A stretch of DNA of 64,000 nt from Staphylococcus phage vB_SauM-UFV_DC4: sequence record MZ779063.1. One strand, given 5' to 3'. Of this stretch, positions 2,118 through 48,127 are shown piece after piece (the first letter of the stretch is position 1; each line of letters opens with the position of its first letter). The notes below the pieces were generated by a model. That model saw nothing but the letters and a program-made list of their open reading frames with translations, was not told where the DNA came from and did no database searches. Position numbers and translations under genes: made by a program.

Positions 2118-2172
2118 TTACTATTTAAATATATATTATATAAATGAAGTTAATTAAAATACAGGAGATGAA

Positions 2173-3320: not shown

Positions 3321-3382
3321 AGATTAAGTATATATTATAATTATGAAGAAAGATATTATCATATATCTTTCTAATAAAATTA

Positions 3383-4953: not shown

Positions 4954-5487
4954 TTGAATAAATATTTTAAATTTAAATTAAATAATAAAAGTGATTACGA
5001 TGTATTTAAATTTTCAGGAAATGAAGAAGAAATAAGCGATTCTAAAATTATAGAGTCTTATTTTGATTATATGTTTAATTATTATATAAATGAAGCAATA
5101 CCTGACTCCAGTATGATTAATATTGCTGTATTTACTGAAGGTAAAAGAAAAAGATTATTGAGATTTACTATAGATAAACCACCAATTTATATAAAAGAGC
5201 CAGTTAGTACTTTATTTATGAATGAAAATGATGAAGATAAACAAATTAATTTTAAAGAATTTAACGAAATTAAAAAATTTATACACGAAAAGATTATGGA
5301 ATTGAATAAAGGTGAATTTTATATTTATATTGATTATAATTTTGATTATTCTTATAGAATAGATTACGATGATGTATTTGATAAAATATTATTTAATAAA
5401 AATAATCTAAATCTTTATTCATCATTTATTAAAGAAACAGATGAAAATGAATATAAAAATTATCTAGTAAGAGAGAATTTTAAATAA
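4954..5487 (+). CDS. Paralog-family protein 3 (C-terminus ...NEYKNYLVRENFK), TTG start.
   Basis: TTG start with an upstream aggggc RBS; shares the family N- and C-terminal motifs. Confidence 0.5.
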   Translation: MNKYFKFKLNNKSDYDVFKFSGNEEEISDSKIIESYFDYMFNYYINEAIPDSSMINIAVFTEGKRKRLLRFTIDKPPIYIKEPVSTLFMNENDEDKQINFKEFNEIKKFIHEKIMELNKGEFYIYIDYNFDYSYRIDYDDVFDKILFNKNNLNLYSSFIKETDENEYKNYLVRENFK

Positions 5488-7748: not shown

Positions 7749-7805
7749 TATTCATATAGTTTGAGGAAATTTTCCTTAAGCTATATGAATTATTTTATTT
7801 TTTTT
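7749..7805 (+). terminator. Nested-palindrome terminator (attcatatag ... ctatatgaat with an inner AGGAAA/TTTCCT) plus a T-run.
   Basis: A 10-bp perfect inverted repeat flanks an inner 6-bp inverted repeat, followed by tattttattttttttc. Confidence 0.55.
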
Positions 7806-7939
7806 CTAAAAATATAAACTAATTTATATTAATAATTTTTATAATGTATCATTCACTTAGTCGCAAATATTTATTTATTTTAAGAACATAAATTTTATAT
7901 CAAATAATATAGAATTTTTAAAAAGGAGAATTTAATTTT

Positions 7940-8503
7940 ATGGAAAAATATGATAAATTAACTGAAGAATTAGAAGCTTTATATGAGCAATCTCAAGAAG
8001 AAGCTCTAGAAGAACAGTTCGAAAGCATTATCGAATCAACTGATGAAGATAAAGCAGAAGAAGTTGAAGATAAAGATTCTAAAGAAGATTCAGACGAAGA
8101 AGAAACATCTGTTGAAGAACAATTTAACAGTATCTTAGAATCAGAAGATGAAGAATCTGATGAGGAAGAAGATGACGAAGATTCAGAAGAAGAACCGGTT
8201 GAAGAATCTGATGAGGAAGATTCAGAAGACGATTCAGAAGATGATGAAGATTCTTTAGAAGAAGAATTAAATCGTTTATTTGAAGAAAATGAAGACCCAG
8301 AAATGGATGTCGAAAAGCAAACTACAAAAGCTAATGACATGAACTCAAAAAAATCATCTGACTCTACTGAACATCCTGAAGAAGATGTGAAAAAAATCAC
8401 TTCAGAAGATGAAGACGAAGAAGAAGATGCTGAAGATGACGAAGAAGAATCTACTAATGAAGATGAATCATTAGAAGAATCATTAGATCGTATCTTTGGT
8501 TAA
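7940..8503 (+). CDS. Hyper-acidic Asp/Glu/Ser-rich protein (about 45% D+E) with internal EEQF-S-I-ES-DE repeats; candidate DNA-mimic, anti-restriction or scaffold-like protein.
   Basis: RBS aaaggag. The translation carries the repeated motifs EEQFESIIESTDED, EEQFNSILESEDEE, EEELNRLFEENEDPE and EESLDRIFG. Confidence 0.6.
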   Translation: MEKYDKLTEELEALYEQSQEEALEEQFESIIESTDEDKAEEVEDKDSKEDSDEEETSVEEQFNSILESEDEESDEEEDDEDSEEEPVEESDEEDSEDDSEDDEDSLEEELNRLFEENEDPEMDVEKQTTKANDMNSKKSSDSTEHPEEDVKKITSEDEDEEEDAEDDEEESTNEDESLEESLDRIFG

Positions 8504-8524: not shown

Positions 8525-8557
8525 ATCCCCTAACCTTATTAATTTAAGGTTAGGGGA
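8525..8557. terminator. Bidirectional terminator between convergent genes (atcccctaacctt / aaggttaggggat).
   Basis: Perfect 13-bp inverted repeat with A/T runs on both sides. Confidence 0.65.
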
Positions 8558-8572
8558 TTAATATTGTATTTT

Positions 8573-12052: not shown

Positions 12053-12114
12053 TATTAAATTTCACCAAACTTTCATTTTTATTTAAATAATAAGTTGATG
12101 TTTTATGATTTTAA

Positions 12115-26820: not shown

Positions 26821-26901
26821 TTATAAAAATTATTTAAGATTATTTAATTACCATTAATCTCATTTATATAATATATATTTAAATAATGTTTATAATTTTA
26901 T

Positions 26902-27555: not shown

Positions 27556-28013
27556 TTCCTTTTTATTAATTAAAAATTAATTAATTTATTATATTTATAT
27601 TCCTTATTTATTAAAAATTCTTTAATTAAAAATATATTTATTAAAAATTTATTAATAATATTTATATTAATTAAAATTTAATAATTAAAAATAAATAAAC
27701 TACCCCCTAAATCCCCCTTCTTGTAAAACAAATTCCAAACTATATATTAAATTATTAGCTCAGAAAATTAAAAATTTTTACTAAATAATATATCTGTTAC
27801 AAAATGTATTAATCTAATACAGATATATTAATTCTTTTTTATAAGTATAATTATATAATTATTTCAATCATTGGTATGTTTATTTTTGAATTGAATAGAG
27901 AACATATTAAGTTAATATAGATTTTTAAATTAAAAATATTATAGAAAATATACAGAGATATATAACAACCTTTTATTAAATATACAAAGAGAGCGAGGAT
28001 TAAATGAGATATA
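27556..28013. promoter_or_regulatory. A 458-bp AT-rich divergent intergenic region. It has about 6 copies of a TTAATTAAAAAT-like iteron, a CCCCCTAAATCCCCC island and a 10-bp inverted-repeat operator-like site (atatatctgt N21 acagatatat). It is a candidate divergent promoter or replication-origin region.
   Basis: Direct repeats were counted by eye at 27575-27695. The inverted repeat is at 27789-27829. Confidence 0.45.
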
Positions 28014-34112: not shown

Positions 34113-34955
34113 TTATTTAAAGTTTCTATAGAAATCATCAAGTCCATTAAGAACAGATTCTTCTAAGAACACTTTGATAGTTTTATTACTTTCTCTAATT
34201 GAAGCTAATTGAGAACCTTTATCATAACTGATATTAGATTCATCAACTCCAGCAAATCCCATATCTTCTGCAATGTATTTCACATTATCTGAATTTTCTT
34301 TAATATAAGTTAAAACTTCTCTAGGAGAGAATTCAGTAATTTTACCATTAGCAAACATATCAATTGATTCATTTACCATTTGTAAATCATTAGGATTATA
34401 GTTATTATGACCTTCTGAAATAATATTTTGAATATAAGAATCTTGATGAGATGGAATTACTACCCAATCATAGCAAATTAATCTTAAAGGCTTAGTAACT
34501 TCAACTTCACCAGAAGGAGTTCTATTAATTTTACTGAAACCACGCATTGAGAAAGATACGTCAGATTTTTGTCTAATTAAACCTTTCATATCTTTACCAG
34601 CTGCTGTTTGAGCTGTTTCTACTTCTCCCATTAATTTATTACCATTCCACCAAGTTCTAGTAACAATATGAGAAATATTGCGTTGATCAATATACATTTG
34701 ACGTTTAGGTTCATCACTTAAGGGATGTCCTGATTCCCCGTAAAAAGTTCTTCTTGCTAATTTTTCTTGTATTACTGGACTATCTAAACCACTTTGAATA
34801 ACATCTTTACGATAAACACGACCATTACGGTTTTGTCTATCCGCTTCTTGTAACTCAGCAATGAATCTAACCGATTTATTATTATCTTGAACTACTTCTG
34901 GTTGAGAAGTTGTATTAGATTCATTAATAAGATAAGCTTTTATATCTTTAGACAT
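34113..34955 (-). CDS. Putative prohead maturation protease (HK97/S78-like).
   Basis: Three S78-like blocks were seen: VRFIAELQEADRQNRNGRVYRKDV, GESGHP and DVSFSMRGFS. The last resembles the gmSfGF block. Confidence 0.35.
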   Translation of the reverse strand: MSKDIKAYLINESNTTSQPEVVQDNNKSVRFIAELQEADRQNRNGRVYRKDVIQSGLDSPVIQEKLARRTFYGESGHPLSDEPKRQMYIDQRNISHIVTRTWWNGNKLMGEVETAQTAAGKDMKGLIRQKSDVSFSMRGFSKINRTPSGEVEVTKPLRLICYDWVVIPSHQDSYIQNIISEGHNNYNPNDLQMVNESIDMFANGKITEFSPREVLTYIKENSDNVKYIAEDMGFAGVDESNISYDKGSQLASIRESNKTIKVFLEESVLNGLDDFYRNFK

Positions 34956-35055: not shown

Positions 35056-36075
35056 GTGAAATACTTGAAGAATTTCAATGAAGTAGAAAGTGAATTAAAA
35101 TATTTCATAGAACAAACAGATAACGATTCTTTTCCTGTTGATTTATATGATAAATTGATTGATATTGAAAAGTATGCAGATGTAGATTCTTTTACAAGTG
35201 ATCAAGTTAGGAAATCGGTTAAATATCTTGTTGCTTTAAAAGATTCACTAGAAAGATTTGAAATTGAAAATGAACAGTCTGAAATGGCAGTTAATATGGT
35301 TCTTCATAAAATAGAATTTTTAAAAGATAAGTATAATACTCTTTATATTAATAAACGTGTTCCAAATAATGGTTACATAGATAATTTATATAAAGAAGAT
35401 TTCAGTTCTAATATTAATACAGAATTTAATTTTAAACAATTAACTGTAGCATTAGCTGAAAGTCCTGCTGATTCTAAACTAGAAAGAAAAGCTGTTATTA
35501 ATTTCTTAATGGAAGGTAATATGAATTATCTCAATGAAGCTTATGACGATGATGATGACGAAGATTATCTTGATGGTCTTGATAGTAGTTTTGAAACTTC
35601 TAAAGAACCTAAAGTTGCTGAAAAGAATTTAAATAGATTAATTGGTTCTGTTAAAAAAGCAACCGCTTCTTCTAAAAATATGAATGATAAACAATTAGCT
35701 AAAGCTAACCGTATTAGATTTGTAAGAGCTTTATTAACTGGAATTTTATTCTGTATTGGTTTAAAAATTAGTTCAGCAGCTATTGGTAAAGCTAAAACAG
35801 CTTTAATAGGGTTATTGACTGTAATTGTTTATAATGCAAGTAAAGGTAATGAACTTAATAGACTTATCATTGTATTAGAAGAAAGAATCCAAACTTTAGA
35901 GAATAGAATTGATTCGACTGATGATGGAGAAAAGAGAAAAGAATTAAGAATATTAAAATCAGATTTAGAAGGTCAACTTAAGAAAGCTAATTTCCAAAAG
36001 AAATCTATTGAGAAAACTAAAAATGCGATTTCTCGTGGAGATGTAAACGATAGTGGGTCAGCGTATGACTATTAA
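35056..36075 (+). CDS. Scaffold-like protein with a coiled coil, a central TM-like segment and an acidic stretch. The start is uncertain: GTG at 35056 or TTG at 35065.
   Basis: ORF divergent from the protease gene. Confidence 0.4.
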   Translation: MKYLKNFNEVESELKYFIEQTDNDSFPVDLYDKLIDIEKYADVDSFTSDQVRKSVKYLVALKDSLERFEIENEQSEMAVNMVLHKIEFLKDKYNTLYINKRVPNNGYIDNLYKEDFSSNINTEFNFKQLTVALAESPADSKLERKAVINFLMEGNMNYLNEAYDDDDDEDYLDGLDSSFETSKEPKVAEKNLNRLIGSVKKATASSKNMNDKQLAKANRIRFVRALLTGILFCIGLKISSAAIGKAKTALIGLLTVIVYNASKGNELNRLIIVLEERIQTLENRIDSTDDGEKRKELRILKSDLEGQLKKANFQKKSIEKTKNAISRGDVNDSGSAYDY

Positions 36076-36739
36076 TAATAGAGATCTTTTATCTGAATCA
36101 ATTAAAAAATTATTAAATGGTAATAATATTCTTAATGAAGCTGAAGATGATGAAACTAATAATGATTCTTCAGATACTAATACAGATGATACAAGTTCGG
36201 AAGATACTACTAATGATAATGAAGAATCTTCAGAAGAAAATTCAGAAACAGAAGAAGATAATCAAGATGATAATAATGAAGATGATTCTAGTGCAGATGA
36301 CTCTGAAAGTGATTCAGGATTAGATGATGGTTCAGAAGAGAATTCAGATGAAGACAATCCTTTAGACGATCAATCTGAAGAAGAAAATAATGAGCCTAAA
36401 GAAACTAATTCAGATAAATATCTAAAATTACAAATATTTAATAAATTAAATGATTTAATAGATGTTTCATTAAAATTTAAAGATATTGTAAATGAAAAGA
36501 ATATGGAATCATTTGATAAAAATGAAAAAGAAAAAATGAGTGAGATTACTGTCCAAACTTCAAATAACTTAGACAGTTTAATTGATAGTATTAATTTATT
36601 TAACAATAAATTTATAAATAATATTGATGCTGATAAATGTCAAAAACTTTATACGAAGTTTGAAAGTACTTATGAAGAGATCTTCAATATTTATTTAAAA
36701 GAATACAATAAATTGAATAAAGACAAAAAAAGCAAATAG
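36053..36739 (+). CDS. Highly acidic Ser/Asp/Glu/Asn-rich protein immediately upstream of the major capsid gene; scaffolding-protein candidate.
   Basis: Low-complexity acidic N-terminal half and a helical C-terminal half; its position is upstream of the MCP. Confidence 0.45.
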   Translation: MGQRMTINNRDLLSESIKKLLNGNNILNEAEDDETNNDSSDTNTDDTSSEDTTNDNEESSEENSETEEDNQDDNNEDDSSADDSESDSGLDDGSEENSDEDNPLDDQSEEENNEPKETNSDKYLKLQIFNKLNDLIDVSLKFKDIVNEKNMESFDKNEKEKMSEITVQTSNNLDSLIDSINLFNNKFINNIDADKCQKLYTKFESTYEEIFNIYLKEYNKLNKDKKSK

Positions 36740-43570: not shown

Positions 43571-43612
43571 AATATATTATTAAAAATTATAAGAAAGAGG
43601 TTTGATTAAAAG

Positions 43613-43852
43613 ATGGAACAAATTAAATTTTATACTAAGAATAACTGTGCTAAATGTGGTTTCAGTAAAATGTTTTTAAATAATAAAGGTGTTGCTTACA
43701 CTGAAATCAATATTGATGAAGATGAAAGTGCTAAAGAAGAACTTTTATCTAAAGGATACCAATCATTACCTGTAATTGATTTTGGAACAGATGTAATCGT
43801 TGGTAATGATCCTGCTAAATTAAATCAAATTTTATCTACAGTTACTGCTTAA
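43613..43852 (+). CDS. nrdH: NrdH-like glutaredoxin/thioredoxin-fold redoxin (CxxC).
   Basis: 79 aa with a CAKC motif near the N-terminus; it lies immediately upstream of nrdI and nrdE. Confidence 0.65.
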   Translation: MEQIKFYTKNNCAKCGFSKMFLNNKGVAYTEINIDEDESAKEELLSKGYQSLPVIDFGTDVIVGNDPAKLNQILSTVTA

Positions 43853-43876
43853 TTAAATATAAAGGAGATTATAATT

Positions 43877-44077
43877 ATGCAAACTATTTTTAATAGTCCA
43901 GAAGAAGTAGATTTTAAAAAATTAGCTGAGAAAGCTAGAAATAATGATAATGAATTAAATACAAAAGCTGTTCATGAAGGAGAATACAATTACAATTTCA
44001 GTATTGAAGGTTGGAATTACTCATTCAGTTCAGATGGAACTTATTGGAAATGGAATTATCAACAAGTTAATCAATAA
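43877..44077 (+). CDS. Small hypothetical protein (66 aa).
   Basis: RBS aaggaga. Confidence 0.35.
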   Translation: MQTIFNSPEEVDFKKLAEKARNNDNELNTKAVHEGEYNYNFSIEGWNYSFSSDGTYWKWNYQQVNQ

Positions 44078-44095
44078 TAATGATTAATAAAAAAC

Positions 44096-44126
44096 GATCT
44101 ATCACAGAGATAATCTGTGATGGATC
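44096..44126 (+). terminator. Imperfect hairpin (gatctatcacaga / tctgtgatggatc) plus a T-run.
   Basis: 13-bp stem with one mismatch. Confidence 0.45.
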
Positions 44127-44164
44127 TATTTTTAACGAAAAATTTTATATTTGGAGAGATTTAA

Positions 44165-44595: not shown

Positions 44596-46797
44596 ATGCC
44601 AAAAGAAATAGACTTAACTTCAGAAAAATTTAAAGATTATTCATATAACGAATTAAACTCAAGAGGTTCACAATTAAAAGATGGTAATTTAGATTTAGAA
44701 TTTGAATTAACATCTGTTAAAAAATATTTCTTAGATTCAGTTAATAAGAATGTAAGATACTTTAAAACATATAAAGAAAAAATTAATTATTTAGTTGATA
44801 ATGATTATATTGATGGAGACATGATCAGTAATTATGATTTTGAATTTATTAAAGGATTAATGAAAGAATTAATGGCTTATAAACATAGATTCACTCGTCT
44901 ATTAGGAGCTAAGAAATTCTATGAACAGTATGCAATGAAAGATGATGCAGGAGAAATTTTATTAGAACTATATGAAGATAGAATTTTATTTGTAGCTTTA
45001 TATTTAGCTGATGGTGATGAAGAATTAGCTAGAAATATTGCTAATGAAATTATTACAGGTACTTTCCAACCTGCTACACCAACATTCCTTAATGCAGGTA
45101 GAGTACGTTCTGGGGAATTAGTAAGTTGTTTCTTATTAACTATGGAAGATTCTTTATCATCTATTTATAGAAATATTTCTAACGTGGCACAATTAAGTAA
45201 ACGTGGTGGAGGAATTGGAGTATCTTTAAGTAATTTACGTGCTGACAATGATCCAATTAAAGGTGTTGAAGGAGCAGCTTCAGGAGTAGTTCCAGTTATG
45301 AAAGTATTTGAAGACACATTATCGTATGTAAATCAATTGGGTCAACGTAATGGTGCAGGTGCACTTTACTTAAACATTTTCCATAAAGATGTAGTAAAAT
45401 TCTTAGATACTAAGAAAGAAAATGCTGATGAGAAAGTAAGATTAAAAACTATTTCATTAGGTTTAACAGTTCCAGATAAATATTATCAATTAGTTAAAGA
45501 AAATAAATCATTATATACATTTAGTCCATATGATATTAAAAAATATTACGATTTAGATTTCGATAGTATTGACTTTAATACTTACTATGATATCTTTGTA
45601 GATGATAAACGTATTAGCAAAGAGAAAATGTATGCTCGTGATTTAGAAACTACTATTAGTAAATTACAACAAGAATCTGGCTATCCTTATATCATTAATA
45701 TTGATACTGCTAATAGAGCTAATCCAATTAGTCATGGTACAATTAAAATGAGTAACCTATGTAGTGAAATTTTACAAGTACAATACCCTTCATTAGTTGA
45801 CGATAATCAACAATATGTTAAAACAGGAACAGACGTTTCATGTAACTTAGCTTCAACTATCGTACCTGGTTTAATGAAATCAGAAGACTTTGGTAAATCA
45901 GTTGGAACTATGTTAAGAAGTTTAAATTCAGTGGCAGAAAAATCTAATATTGAAGCTGTACCTACAGTTAAGAAAGCTAATGATTTATTCCATACGGTTG
46001 GTTTAGGTGCAATGGGATTACACACATATTTAGCTGAAAATCATATTCAATATGGATCAGAAGAATCTAAAGACTTTACTAATATTTATTTCATGTTATT
46101 AAACTATTGGACATTAGTTGAATCAAATAAAATTGCTAAAGAAAAAGATGAATCATTCTACTTATTTGATAAAACTGAATATGCTGATGGTTCTTACTTT
46201 GATAAACGTTATATTGGTAAAAATATTCAACCACGTACTGAAAAAGTTAAAGAATTATTTGAAGATATCTTTATTCCATCTGATAGTGATTGGGAACAAT
46301 TAAGAAATAATATCGTTATGGATGGTTTATACAATCAAAATAGATTAGCTGTAGCACCTAATGGTTCTATTGGTTATGTTAGAGAAGTATCACCTTCAAT
46401 TCACCCTATTGTTGAATTAATTGAAGAACGTGTAGAAGGTAAAACAGGTACTACTTTCTATCCAGCACCAGGTATTACACCAGATAACTTTGATTACTTT
46501 AAGAAAAATGCTTATCAATTAGATATGAGAGATATGATTGATTTATATTCAGAAGCTCAATATCATGTAGATCAAGGTATTTCTATGAATATTTATTTAA
46601 TGAATGAACTTGATCCAGATCTTTATGAATGGAAAAAAGATTCTTTAGATAAAGAAACTACTACTCGTGATATTAGTAGATTACGTAACTATGCTTACAG
46701 TAAAGGTATTAAATCTATGTATTATACTCGTATTTATTCACCAGACCATGATGAAAATTCTCAAGGTATTGTTGAATGTGAATCTTGTTCTATTTAA
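44596..46797 (+). CDS. nrdE: Ribonucleotide reductase class Ib alpha subunit.
   Basis: 733 aa. It carries the active-site MSNLCSEI motif and the C-terminal redox-shuttle cysteines CESCSI. Confidence 0.85.
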   Translation: MPKEIDLTSEKFKDYSYNELNSRGSQLKDGNLDLEFELTSVKKYFLDSVNKNVRYFKTYKEKINYLVDNDYIDGDMISNYDFEFIKGLMKELMAYKHRFTRLLGAKKFYEQYAMKDDAGEILLELYEDRILFVALYLADGDEELARNIANEIITGTFQPATPTFLNAGRVRSGELVSCFLLTMEDSLSSIYRNISNVAQLSKRGGGIGVSLSNLRADNDPIKGVEGAASGVVPVMKVFEDTLSYVNQLGQRNGAGALYLNIFHKDVVKFLDTKKENADEKVRLKTISLGLTVPDKYYQLVKENKSLYTFSPYDIKKYYDLDFDSIDFNTYYDIFVDDKRISKEKMYARDLETTISKLQQESGYPYIINIDTANRANPISHGTIKMSNLCSEILQVQYPSLVDDNQQYVKTGTDVSCNLASTIVPGLMKSEDFGKSVGTMLRSLNSVAEKSNIEAVPTVKKANDLFHTVGLGAMGLHTYLAENHIQYGSEESKDFTNIYFMLLNYWTLVESNKIAKEKDESFYLFDKTEYADGSYFDKRYIGKNIQPRTEKVKELFEDIFIPSDSDWEQLRNNIVMDGLYNQNRLAVAPNGSIGYVREVSPSIHPIVELIEERVEGKTGTTFYPAPGITPDNFDYFKKNAYQLDMRDMIDLYSEAQYHVDQGISMNIYLMNELDPDLYEWKKDSLDKETTTRDISRLRNYAYSKGIKSMYYTRIYSPDHDENSQGIVECESCSI

Positions 46798-47031
46798 TTG
46801 GAGGTATTTAATATGACATTAAAAGAAAAATTTGAAAGTAAATATAGAAATTTAAATAAAGAACCAGAAATTTTAATTGTAGTAATTAAACTACCAAGTG
46901 GAGCTAAGGAAGTAATTTCCAATAGCTCTGACTTGGATAATAAAGTTCATTATTACTTAGAAAATTATGATGATCAATTTAGACATGTTAGAGATAGCAA
47001 TGTACAGATAATTGATTTCGTATTAGTTTAA
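46798..47031 (+). CDS. Small hypothetical protein between nrdE and nrdF.
   Basis: RBS ggaggt. Confidence 0.4.
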   Translation: MEVFNMTLKEKFESKYRNLNKEPEILIVVIKLPSGAKEVISNSSDLDNKVHYYLENYDDQFRHVRDSNVQIIDFVLV

Positions 47032-47056
47032 AAATAAAGAAAAAGGATGAAGTTAA

Positions 47057-48127
47057 ATGGATAGAGGAGATTTCTTAACAAGTTATACAAAAGATAAAGG
47101 TTATTATACACCTGTAAATTGGAATAGAGTAGATGATTATGTAGATATTATGACATATGACACTTTAGTATCTCAATTTTGGACATCAACACGTATTCCA
47201 GTATCTAATGATATTAAAGCTTGGTCTAATACTGATGATTTAACTAAAGGAGTAGTTAATAAAGTATTTGCTGAATTAACTATTTTAGATACACTTCAAT
47301 CTCGTGAAGGTTCTGATGCTTTAATGCATAGTGCATTAACTACATTAGAAGAAGATGTATTAAGAAATATCGGTTTTATGGAATCAATTCATGCTCGTAG
47401 TTATAGTACTATTTTTACTACATTATGTACTTCAAAAGAAGTAGATGAAAACTTTGAATGGGCAGAAAATAATAAATATGTACAAAAGAAAATTAAATTA
47501 ATAAATGAAGCTTATCAATCTGGAGATATTCTTAAAATTCAAGCAGCTTCAGTATTCTTAGAATCATTCTTATTCTATTCAGGTTTCTATACTCCTTTAA
47601 GATTAAAAGATAGTCTTAAATCAGTTCTTGAAATCATAAAATTAATCTTAAGAGATGAGTCTGTTCATGGTTCATATATTGGATATAAATTCAGTAAGAG
47701 ATTTGAAAAATTAAGTGAAGAAGAAAAAAATGAAACTAAAATGTGGGTAAATAACTTACTATTTGAACTTTATCAAGTTGAATGTGAATTCATTGAAGAA
47801 GTTTATACTGAAATTGGTTGGGCAGAAGATGTTAAATTATTCGCTCAATATAATGCTAATAAAGCTCTATTAAATCTTAAATTAGATCCTATTTTCGAAA
47901 CTACTGAAGAAGATGTAAACCCTATCGTAATGGCAGGATTAAAAACTTCTACAGGAAATCATGACTTCTTCTCTCAAGAAGGTAATGGTTATTTATTAGG
48001 TAAAGCTGAAAATACTAAAGAAGAAGATTATGATTCAATCGATATTAATGAACTTAATAAGAATATCATTGATTCGTATAAAGATAAAGCAGACGATAGA
48101 TTTAGTCATAGTTACTATATAGATTAA
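47057..48127 (+). CDS. nrdF: Ribonucleotide reductase class Ib beta subunit.
   Basis: 356 aa. Ferritin-like di-iron ligand blocks MESIHARSY and RDESVHGSY are present. Confidence 0.8.
   Translation: MDRGDFLTSYTKDKGYYTPVNWNRVDDYVDIMTYDTLVSQFWTSTRIPVSNDIKAWSNTDDLTKGVVNKVFAELTILDTLQSREGSDALMHSALTTLEEDVLRNIGFMESIHARSYSTIFTTLCTSKEVDENFEWAENNKYVQKKIKLINEAYQSGDILKIQAASVFLESFLFYSGFYTPLRLKDSLKSVLEIIKLILRDESVHGSYIGYKFSKRFEKLSEEEKNETKMWVNNLLFELYQVECEFIEEVYTEIGWAEDVKLFAQYNANKALLNLKLDPIFETTEEDVNPIVMAGLKTSTGNHDFFSQEGNGYLLGKAENTKEEDYDSIDINELNKNIIDSYKDKADDRFSHSYYID

Follow-up and report, generated by a model that had tools for sequence, protein, structure and literature searches.

Strongly acidic proteins that may serve as a reference for an acidic phage gene product are known from various systems: i) in T4, gp67 (PIP) and gp22 are late, acidic, helical-amphipathic proteins that work together with a protease of the gp21 type; ii) Ocr (T7 gp0.3) and ArdA are strongly acidic phage and plasmid proteins, compact folded dimers whose negative charge imitates the DNA phosphate; iii) Ugi and SAUGI are acidic proteins connected to uracil-DNA phages, small alpha/beta proteins (~84-112 amino acids (aa), 12-24% acidic) with an ESI tripeptide on a beta-strand and a hydrophobic pocket that receives the leucine loop of their target, uracil-DNA glycosylase; and iv) the Bacillus jumbo phage AR9 produces a late acidic protein, gp163. 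AR9 and PBS1 are kin of a group of Staphylococcus jumbo phages that have uracil-DNA, or are proposed to have it (PALS2, SA1). We analysed a stretch of 64,000 nucleotides (nt) from one such phage, Staphylococcus phage vB_SauM-UFV_DC4 (MZ779063.1), which is referred to as the window in its entirety and has a G+C content of 26.5%. The subject is the coding sequence at 7940..8503 (+), designated S6_2580 after the corresponding gene of Staphylococcus jumbo phage S6 (BDE75796.1, 'hypothetical protein'), whose product, according to prediction, is an intrinsically disordered polyanion that contains short helices. Tentatively, with a probability of roughly 40%, we read this protein as a late, abundant, multivalent polyanionic factor of head assembly or of the prohead core, in other words as scaffold-like.

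A conserved polyanion with five short motifs

Between positions 5000 and 13000 the window is 99.6% identical to the genome of S6 (LC680885.1), and eight further Staphylococcus jumbo phages match this region at 81-94%. S6_2580 is a genuine, conserved gene that is found in the same location in all nine Staphylococcus jumbo phages from which orthologs were aligned. An open reading frame (ORF) of 187 aa on the + strand at 7940..8503, as reported in a preliminary description that was made from the letters alone, was confirmed from the sequence, and the content of Asp and Glu, put there at ~45%, was corrected upwards: 63 Glu and 31 Asp residues make up 50.3% of the protein, with 7% Lys+Arg and a net charge of -81. 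The protein is by far the most acidic encoded in the window (the runner-up has 29% Asp+Glu). A Ser-rich ORF on the opposite strand (7993..8400 (-)) mirrors the GAA/GAT-rich coding strand and was rejected as a gene.

The preliminary description had also noticed a repeat in about four copies, and this holds: the pattern EEx[FL]xx[IL][ILFY] has four strict copies, starting at aa 24, 59, 107 and 179, against a mean of 0.013 and a maximum of 2 in 20,000 composition-preserving shuffles, and a fifth, degenerate copy can be added to these. The pattern is absent from all other ORFs of the window. The extended consensus reads [SA]-[LV]-E-E-x-[FL]-x-x-[IL]-[ILFY]-[EG]. From the N- to the C-terminus the copies are: motif 1 (LTEELEALYEQ, aa 7-17, 7958..7990 (+)), the degenerate amphipathic copy with an L-Y-E end; motif 2 (ALEEQFESIIES, aa 22-33, 8003..8038 (+)); motif 3 (SVEEQFNSILES, aa 57-68, 8108..8143 (+)), which aligns with ELEEMFNEIINE of another acidic S6 protein, S6_0960; motif 4 (EDSLEEELNRLFEE, aa 103-116, 8246..8287 (+)), with an RLFEE that is also present in T4 gp22; and motif 5 (ESLEESLDRIFG-COOH, aa 176-187, 8465..8500 (+)), which forms the C-terminus. 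The motif windows are those with the highest helical hydrophobic moments of the protein, and motif 4 has the top value (muH 0.66, compared to a mean of 0.26).

Within the alignment of the nine orthologs the five motifs show 87-99% column identity (87, 97, 90, 97 and 99% for motifs 1 to 5, respectively) and almost no indels, motifs 1 and 2 having none, whereas the 163 columns outside the motifs show 56% identity and 53% of these columns carry gaps. The C-terminus SLEE[ST]LDRIFG is shared by all nine, with a single S/T exchange as the sole difference. The linker DNA is built from tandem repeats of 9-24 nt, and the length of the orthologs varies (156-208 aa); all indels preserve the reading frame, the Asp+Glu content is held at 48-58% and the net charge at -70 to -93. 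The ortholog in S. lentus phage SA1 (58% Asp+Glu) has kept all five motifs and misses the central segment (S6 aa ~119-150); this is the only Lys-containing stretch, which thus appears dispensable. Conserved motifs joined by linkers that diverge and yet remain acidic are the signature of short linear motifs within a compositionally constrained disordered chain.

Structure prediction is in line with this signature. The AlphaFold2 model (mean predicted local distance difference test (pLDDT) 62.6, predicted template modelling score (pTM) 0.19) was made from a single sequence and is weak evidence for that reason; it places helices at residues 2-34 (motifs 1 and 2), 58-66, 103-116 and 178-186, i.e. 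at the motifs, and leaves the remainder as coil, so that the protein is predicted to be largely disordered with helices confined to the motifs. Searches of family, structure and protein collections with S6_2580 all came back empty: there were no matches in Pfam-A (E ≤ 0.1, Ocr and ArdA families included), in PHROGs, in a PDB sequence search (E ≤ 10), or in a Foldseek comparison of the model to the PDB, and a scan of IMG/VR by pattern with tblastn confirmation yielded nothing. A word-indexed search of 5.8 billion proteins and an exhaustive HMMER search of 1.84 billion representatives were empty as well. The correction for composition is probably part of the cause of all these blanks, and the low-complexity filter of tblastn stripped even the match of AR9 gp163 to itself. 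The HHpred match given in the GenBank notes of MarsHill and Machias (5WLC_LO, 'ribosome assembly', 95-98%) is most likely an artefact of the low-complexity acidic tract.

Promoter, terminators and timing

Early promoters of AR9 have the form AAATATATATTAT-(6N)-G and late promoters the form AACA-(6N)-TA/G, where 17 of the late ones vary in spacing or bases (PMC5312081). Boxes of the early type, which is that of the virion RNA polymerase, were found in the window at 2127-2146 (+) and 26861-26880 (-) as perfect matches and at 3326-3345 (+) with one mismatch (AAATATATATTAT-N6-G). The early promoter consensus is therefore identical in Bacillus phage AR9 and Staphylococcus phage S6, and the two boxes on the + strand imply that the block of + strand genes upstream of S6_2580 is early.

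S6_2580 itself was described initially as closing this early block. The upstream operon, however, ends at an intrinsic terminator (7750..7790 (+); a 19-bp stem followed by a T-run, -22.5 kcal/mol, z = -9.2), a feature that the annotations of MarsHill and Madawaska also mark at the homologous site, and the 196-nt spacer in front of S6_2580 contains no match to an AR9-type early promoter. What it does contain is a late-type box, AACATAAATTTTATAT (AACA-N7-TA; 7885..7900 (+)), that does not vary among the nine Staphylococcus jumbo phages and stands out as an island (AACATAAWTTTTATAT) in a spacer that has otherwise diverged between the phage subgroups. The Shine-Dalgarno sequence (AGGAG, 7924..7928 (+), 11 nt before the ATG) lies in a second invariant block, AAAAAGGAGAA, and the start codon is invariant too. 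Transcription is predicted to start at ~7896-7897, which would give a leader of ~43 nt. The combination of an upstream terminator, an own late-type box and the lack of an early box makes S6_2580 an independent transcription unit, most probably transcribed, judging from these elements, by the non-virion (late) RNA polymerase.

The box of S6_2580, 55 nt from the ATG, is a variant with a spacing of seven. AACA-N6-TA boxes in the same orientation are located 40-130 nt upstream of the genes for the tail fibre, a 2662-aa protein, the prohead protease, the major capsid protein and other structural proteins. The AACA-N6/7-TA boxes that face structural genes are positioned at 12102(-), 15043(-), 24139(-), 24647(+), 27964(+), 35001(-), 35016(+), 36789(+), 36843(+), 48272(+), 49321(+) and 57348(-), and they permit a provisional early/late map of the window. 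It is only the short core in oriented intergenic positions that is informative, as the complete 16-nt box, used as a pattern, was not enriched in the window (27 matches, 36.7 expected).

Downstream, a perfect 14-bp hairpin (8525..8558) separates S6_2580 from the convergent gene (-23.3 kcal/mol on the + strand and -22.9 on the - strand; z = -4.5 and -5.3). The preliminary description took it for a bidirectional terminator, which is probable: MarsHill carries terminator annotations on both strands at the homologous site. A strict consensus terminator scan made no call here, because the U-tracts are weak.

Acidic late proteins and a possible role in head assembly

The whole genome of AR9 contains exactly one ORF comparable to S6_2580, namely RefSeq gp163 (199 aa, 49% Asp+Glu, L/I islands, C-terminus ...GESLLDLDLL), of which BpSp gp226 is the ortholog. 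In the AR9 transcriptome, where the gene is named g164 (the numbering of the paper is RefSeq + 1), it was mapped to a late AACA promoter of its own and reached 0.61, 178 and 3508 fragments per kilobase per million reads along the time course, compared to 3599 for the capsid gene. The AR9 record does not annotate gp163 as a virion protein. The acidic proteins of AR9/PBS1 and BpSp resemble S6_2580 in length (182-199 aa) and composition (49-52% Asp+Glu), and they too have amphipathic islands rich in L/I and end in a hydrophobic tip. An hhalign comparison of the S6_2580 family to the AR9/BpSp proteins gave a probability of 0.4%, i.e. no homology, and gp163 is therefore considered an analogue.

The gene for AR9 gp163 comes after that of a virion protein, and the S6 homologue of the latter matches the head-tail joining family PF24214 (E = 2e-12) and PHROG 3013 ('head and packaging'). 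An acidic protein is encoded directly after the head-tail joining gene in five phages: gp163 in AR9, gp226 in BpSp, 00106 in LPJP1 (41% Asp+Glu), g129 in phiR1-37 and S6_0960 in S6. The last of these (S6 record 101714-103639, outside the window) has 641 aa, of which the N-terminal ~125 are hyper-acidic and are followed by several CxxC zinc-ribbon-like pairs. It carries EELEEMFNEIINE, a motif of the LEExFxxII type that is conserved in four Staphylococcus phages, and its hyper-acidic start contains EELEEMFNEIINEDEEE, which aligns with motif 3 of S6_2580. In phiR1-37, g129, which has been recorded as a late virion structural protein, carries SLEESLKLF and thereby the SLEESL and hydrophobic pair of motif 5; its copy of the motif, DSLEESLKLFKE, is followed by a poly-Asp/Glu tail, and DSLEESLKLFKEDDDNDD occurs in its C-terminal part. 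Unlike S6_2580, both are larger proteins in which the motif occurs just once, and their likeness to S6_2580 is confined to this motif, with Smith-Waterman z-scores of only 2.5. What S6_2580 has in common with gp163, gp226, LPJP1_00106, g129 and the N-terminus of S6_0960 is a hyper-acidic disordered region with islands of the LEExFxxI(I/L) type. Common ancestry with these acidic late proteins was not supported, the z-scores ranging from 0.4 to 4.4 with whole-sequence shuffles that overstate the significance of low-complexity matches. The surroundings of the RusA gene were compared as well, and no acidic neighbour came to light there in AR9 or LPJP1.

Two further observations concern the same genes. 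In the AR9-like phages a three-gene array is conserved (AR9 gp162-gp164), which comprises the head-tail joining-like virion protein, the hyper-acidic protein and a small protein (PHROG 23231, unknown function) that has a 'GKGPI..P' domain at the N-terminus, then an acidic linker, and a C-terminus of the SAP/HeH-like kind. The ORF that corresponds to S6_0960 is longer by ~215 aa at the N-terminus in MarsHill and SA1.

A prohead protease is encoded in the window at 34113..34955 (-). It belongs to Peptidase_S77, the T4 gp21 family (E = 6e-10; 39.4 bits with a cut-off of 27), and the head module in which it is found is syntenic with that of AR9. The [LI]-x-E site is the type that gp21 cleaves during T4 head maturation. 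In S6_2580 all four internal motifs open with [SA]-[LV]-E, a site type of phiKZ/SPN3US-like prohead proteases, and close with an [LI]-x-E that is invariant. The capsid proteins of S6 and AR9 have N-terminal L-x-E and A-x-E sites where T4 gp23 is processed, and the prohead protease of SPN3US cuts after A-X-E (PMC10052503). Among the T4 proteins, gp67 consists of two amphipathic helices and a pure Asp/Glu tract (EGEEPEDEDEDEDDEDSDDKDDKKDEDSDEDEDDE) and has 44% Asp+Glu, and gp22 carries LDSIFES, ELFESML and RLFEELN, similar to motifs 5, 2 and 4 of S6_2580. The differences are that gp22 is only 22% acidic, compared to 50% for S6_2580, and that S6_2580 is for the most part disordered, repeats its motif five times and is encoded outside the head gene cluster.

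We favour what the preliminary description held as a fallback, a scaffold or internal protein, on account of the protease in the window, the late analogue in AR9 and the occurrence of the motif near the head-tail joining gene. From these likenesses we infer an association with the head, a structural partner and a proteolytic removal. S6_2580 would act in the head-assembly pathway as a scaffold, prohead-core or internal-type factor and not as an enzyme or a folded inhibitor. A disordered polyanion of about -80 would carry five short amphipathic helices, each a short linear motif that may dock one hydrophobic face onto a structural partner; with five copies the protein would be multivalent and could bridge or concentrate several copies of that partner. 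The acidic linkers would keep the chain extended, soluble and repelled by DNA, and the prohead protease would probably remove or fragment it before or during DNA packaging.

The evidence against this reading is considerable. Homology to scaffold or core proteins was not significant: BLASTP of S6_2580 to T4 gp22 matched RLFEE only (E = 1), and the Smith-Waterman z-scores were 0.09 (gp22) and 2.4 (gp67). The gene is located at 7.9 kb, ~26 kb from the head module (33.4-38.5 kb), and the slot between the protease and capsid genes is filled by 35056..36075 (+) and 36053..36739 (+). The latter is better placed and is the primary scaffold candidate; its product (228 aa) has a long N-terminal half that is disordered and rich in D/E/N/S (28% Asp+Glu), is helical in the C-terminal half, and corresponds in position to AR9 gp115 and T4 gp22. 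The slot directly behind the head-tail joining gene likewise belongs to S6_0960, and S6_2580 lies ~143 kb away from it on the 267-kb circular S6 record. The [LI]-x-E sites are not significantly enriched in S6_2580 (8 with 5.07 expected, P = 0.086), and the late timing leans on a promoter motif with a spacing of seven instead of six and on an analogue. Results on the virion of SA1 count for the head-assembly reading: liquid chromatography-tandem mass spectrometry identified 52 proteins, among which were ORF218-220 (the head-tail joining homologue and two neighbours), and neither ORF112, the ortholog of S6_2580, nor ORF217, the 817-aa ortholog of S6_0960; S6_2580 was also not among the 15 proteins of the DC4 virion proteome. 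This absence is weak evidence, as S6_2580 yields few tryptic peptides and the DC4 set is shallow.

Alternative readings and significance

The function proposed initially was that of an early, folded DNA mimic of the Ocr/ArdA type, directed against restriction or BREX. The lack of any Pfam, PHROG, PDB or Foldseek match leaves such a fold unsupported, the promoter is of the late type, and the model is essentially disordered, an outcome that the preliminary description had itself named as a refutation of the mimic. A looser version of the idea is unlikely, though conceivable: the disordered acidic chain, with or without its helices, would be a polyanionic decoy that fills the DNA-binding cleft of a host Type I restriction-modification system, of bacteriophage exclusion (BREX) or of uracil-DNA glycosylase (Ung), and it might be a late product that is carried in the capsid and enters the cell together with the uracil-DNA. 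Apart from the charge, this is attractive because no Ugi, SAUGI or p56 can be recognised in the uracil-DNA jumbo phages of Staphylococcus, where every candidate inhibitor tested to date failed (PMC10303552); the screen concerned required 12-24% acidic residues, so S6_2580 cannot have been included, which counts for the decoy. Motifs 2 and 3 moreover include ESI/NSI, reminiscent of the ESI element with which Ugi and SAUGI bind Ung, and the motif-bearing g129 of phiR1-37 is virion-associated. The ESI of S6_2580, however, sits in a predicted helix instead of a beta-strand, and chance alone should produce such a tripeptide in a sequence rich in E and S; the composition of S6_2580 falls outside the acidic range of the known Ugi/SAUGI members, and no Ugi-like fold or family was recovered any more than one like Ocr or ArdA (the PDB searches gave no match to chains of the 1UDI or 5AYS type). 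Timing and distribution also disagree with a decoy: the Ugi gene of AR9 follows an annotated early promoter, whereas the spacer of S6_2580 offers a late-type box and no early one; AR9 has Ugi and yet keeps an equally acidic late protein; and S6_2580 escaped detection in the virions of SA1 and DC4.

Somewhat less probable still is a nucleic acid-mimicking regulator or chaperone of basic proteins, comparable to a histone chaperone or to the acidic tail of the delta subunit of Firmicute RNA polymerase. Such a protein might keep the virion RNA polymerase, HU-like and other basic internal proteins off the DNA until they are loaded, or its acidic-hydrophobic C-terminal tip might engage replication and repair proteins in the manner of an SSB tail. 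A disordered polyanion with a conserved tip of this kind (...EESLDRIFG) and probable late expression would suit the role, and candidate clients exist: the virions of relatives contain small basic proteins (DC4 proteins with isoelectric points of 10.2 and 9.0), and phiR1-37 encodes the HU-like g131 in the same cluster as g129. The reading overlaps with that of head assembly, and has no support independent of it. The SSB tail ends in D-D-D-I-P-F, whereas S6_2580 ends in Gly and lacks the free aromatic residue, and AR9 has no annotated clamp gene; mimicry of a sliding-clamp ligand or of an SSB tail by the C-terminus was dropped on these two grounds.

We consider it very improbable that S6_2580 is an unstructured DNA surrogate of a new kind. 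As a late product it would enter the prohead by means of five helices that resemble capsid-targeting sequences, and after injection with the uracil-DNA its ~80 negative charges would blind the host Ung and possibly restriction enzymes. A functionless or near-neutral low-complexity ORF, generated by slippage of GAA/GAT-rich DNA, would account for the tandem repeats in the linkers and the variable length of the orthologs but is hardly credible for a gene that is present in nine of nine phages with an invariant promoter box, Shine-Dalgarno sequence, start codon and five motifs down to the C-terminus, and in which all indels are in frame and the acidic content is kept.

Elsewhere in the window two regions were noticed. 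An extremely AT-rich divergent intergenic region of 458 nt (27556-28013), with reiterated TTTTTAATTAATAAA-like elements, separates the homologues of AR9 gp260 and gp259 and could be a regulatory or replication-related region. The ribonucleotide reductase genes (44596-48127), homologues of AR9 gp222 and gp221, are preceded by a gap of 594 nt in the list of ORFs of at least 90 aa (43571-44164); this gap looks coding at its end and may hold a short gene, an intron or the remnant of a homing element.

S6_2580 escapes homology searches and would remain 'hypothetical' without an analysis that is based on its anatomy. If it were a decoy, it would fill the missing slot of an Ung inhibitor in the uracil-DNA phages of Staphylococcus, Listeria and Yersinia, and as an injected surrogate it would resolve the published paradox of uracil-DNA phages outside Bacillus that have no recognisable Ung inhibitor. 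If the head-assembly reading is true, S6_2580 would be an extreme scaffold or core protein, half acidic and almost wholly disordered, that uses repeated helix motifs of 10 residues. The sequence LEExFxxI(I/L), followed by Glu, would then provide a handle to recognise proteins that are targeted to the capsid and processed by the protease in phages where head assembly has not been studied, and motifs of the S6_2580 type also mark other acidic modules across the clade of uracil-DNA jumbo phages.

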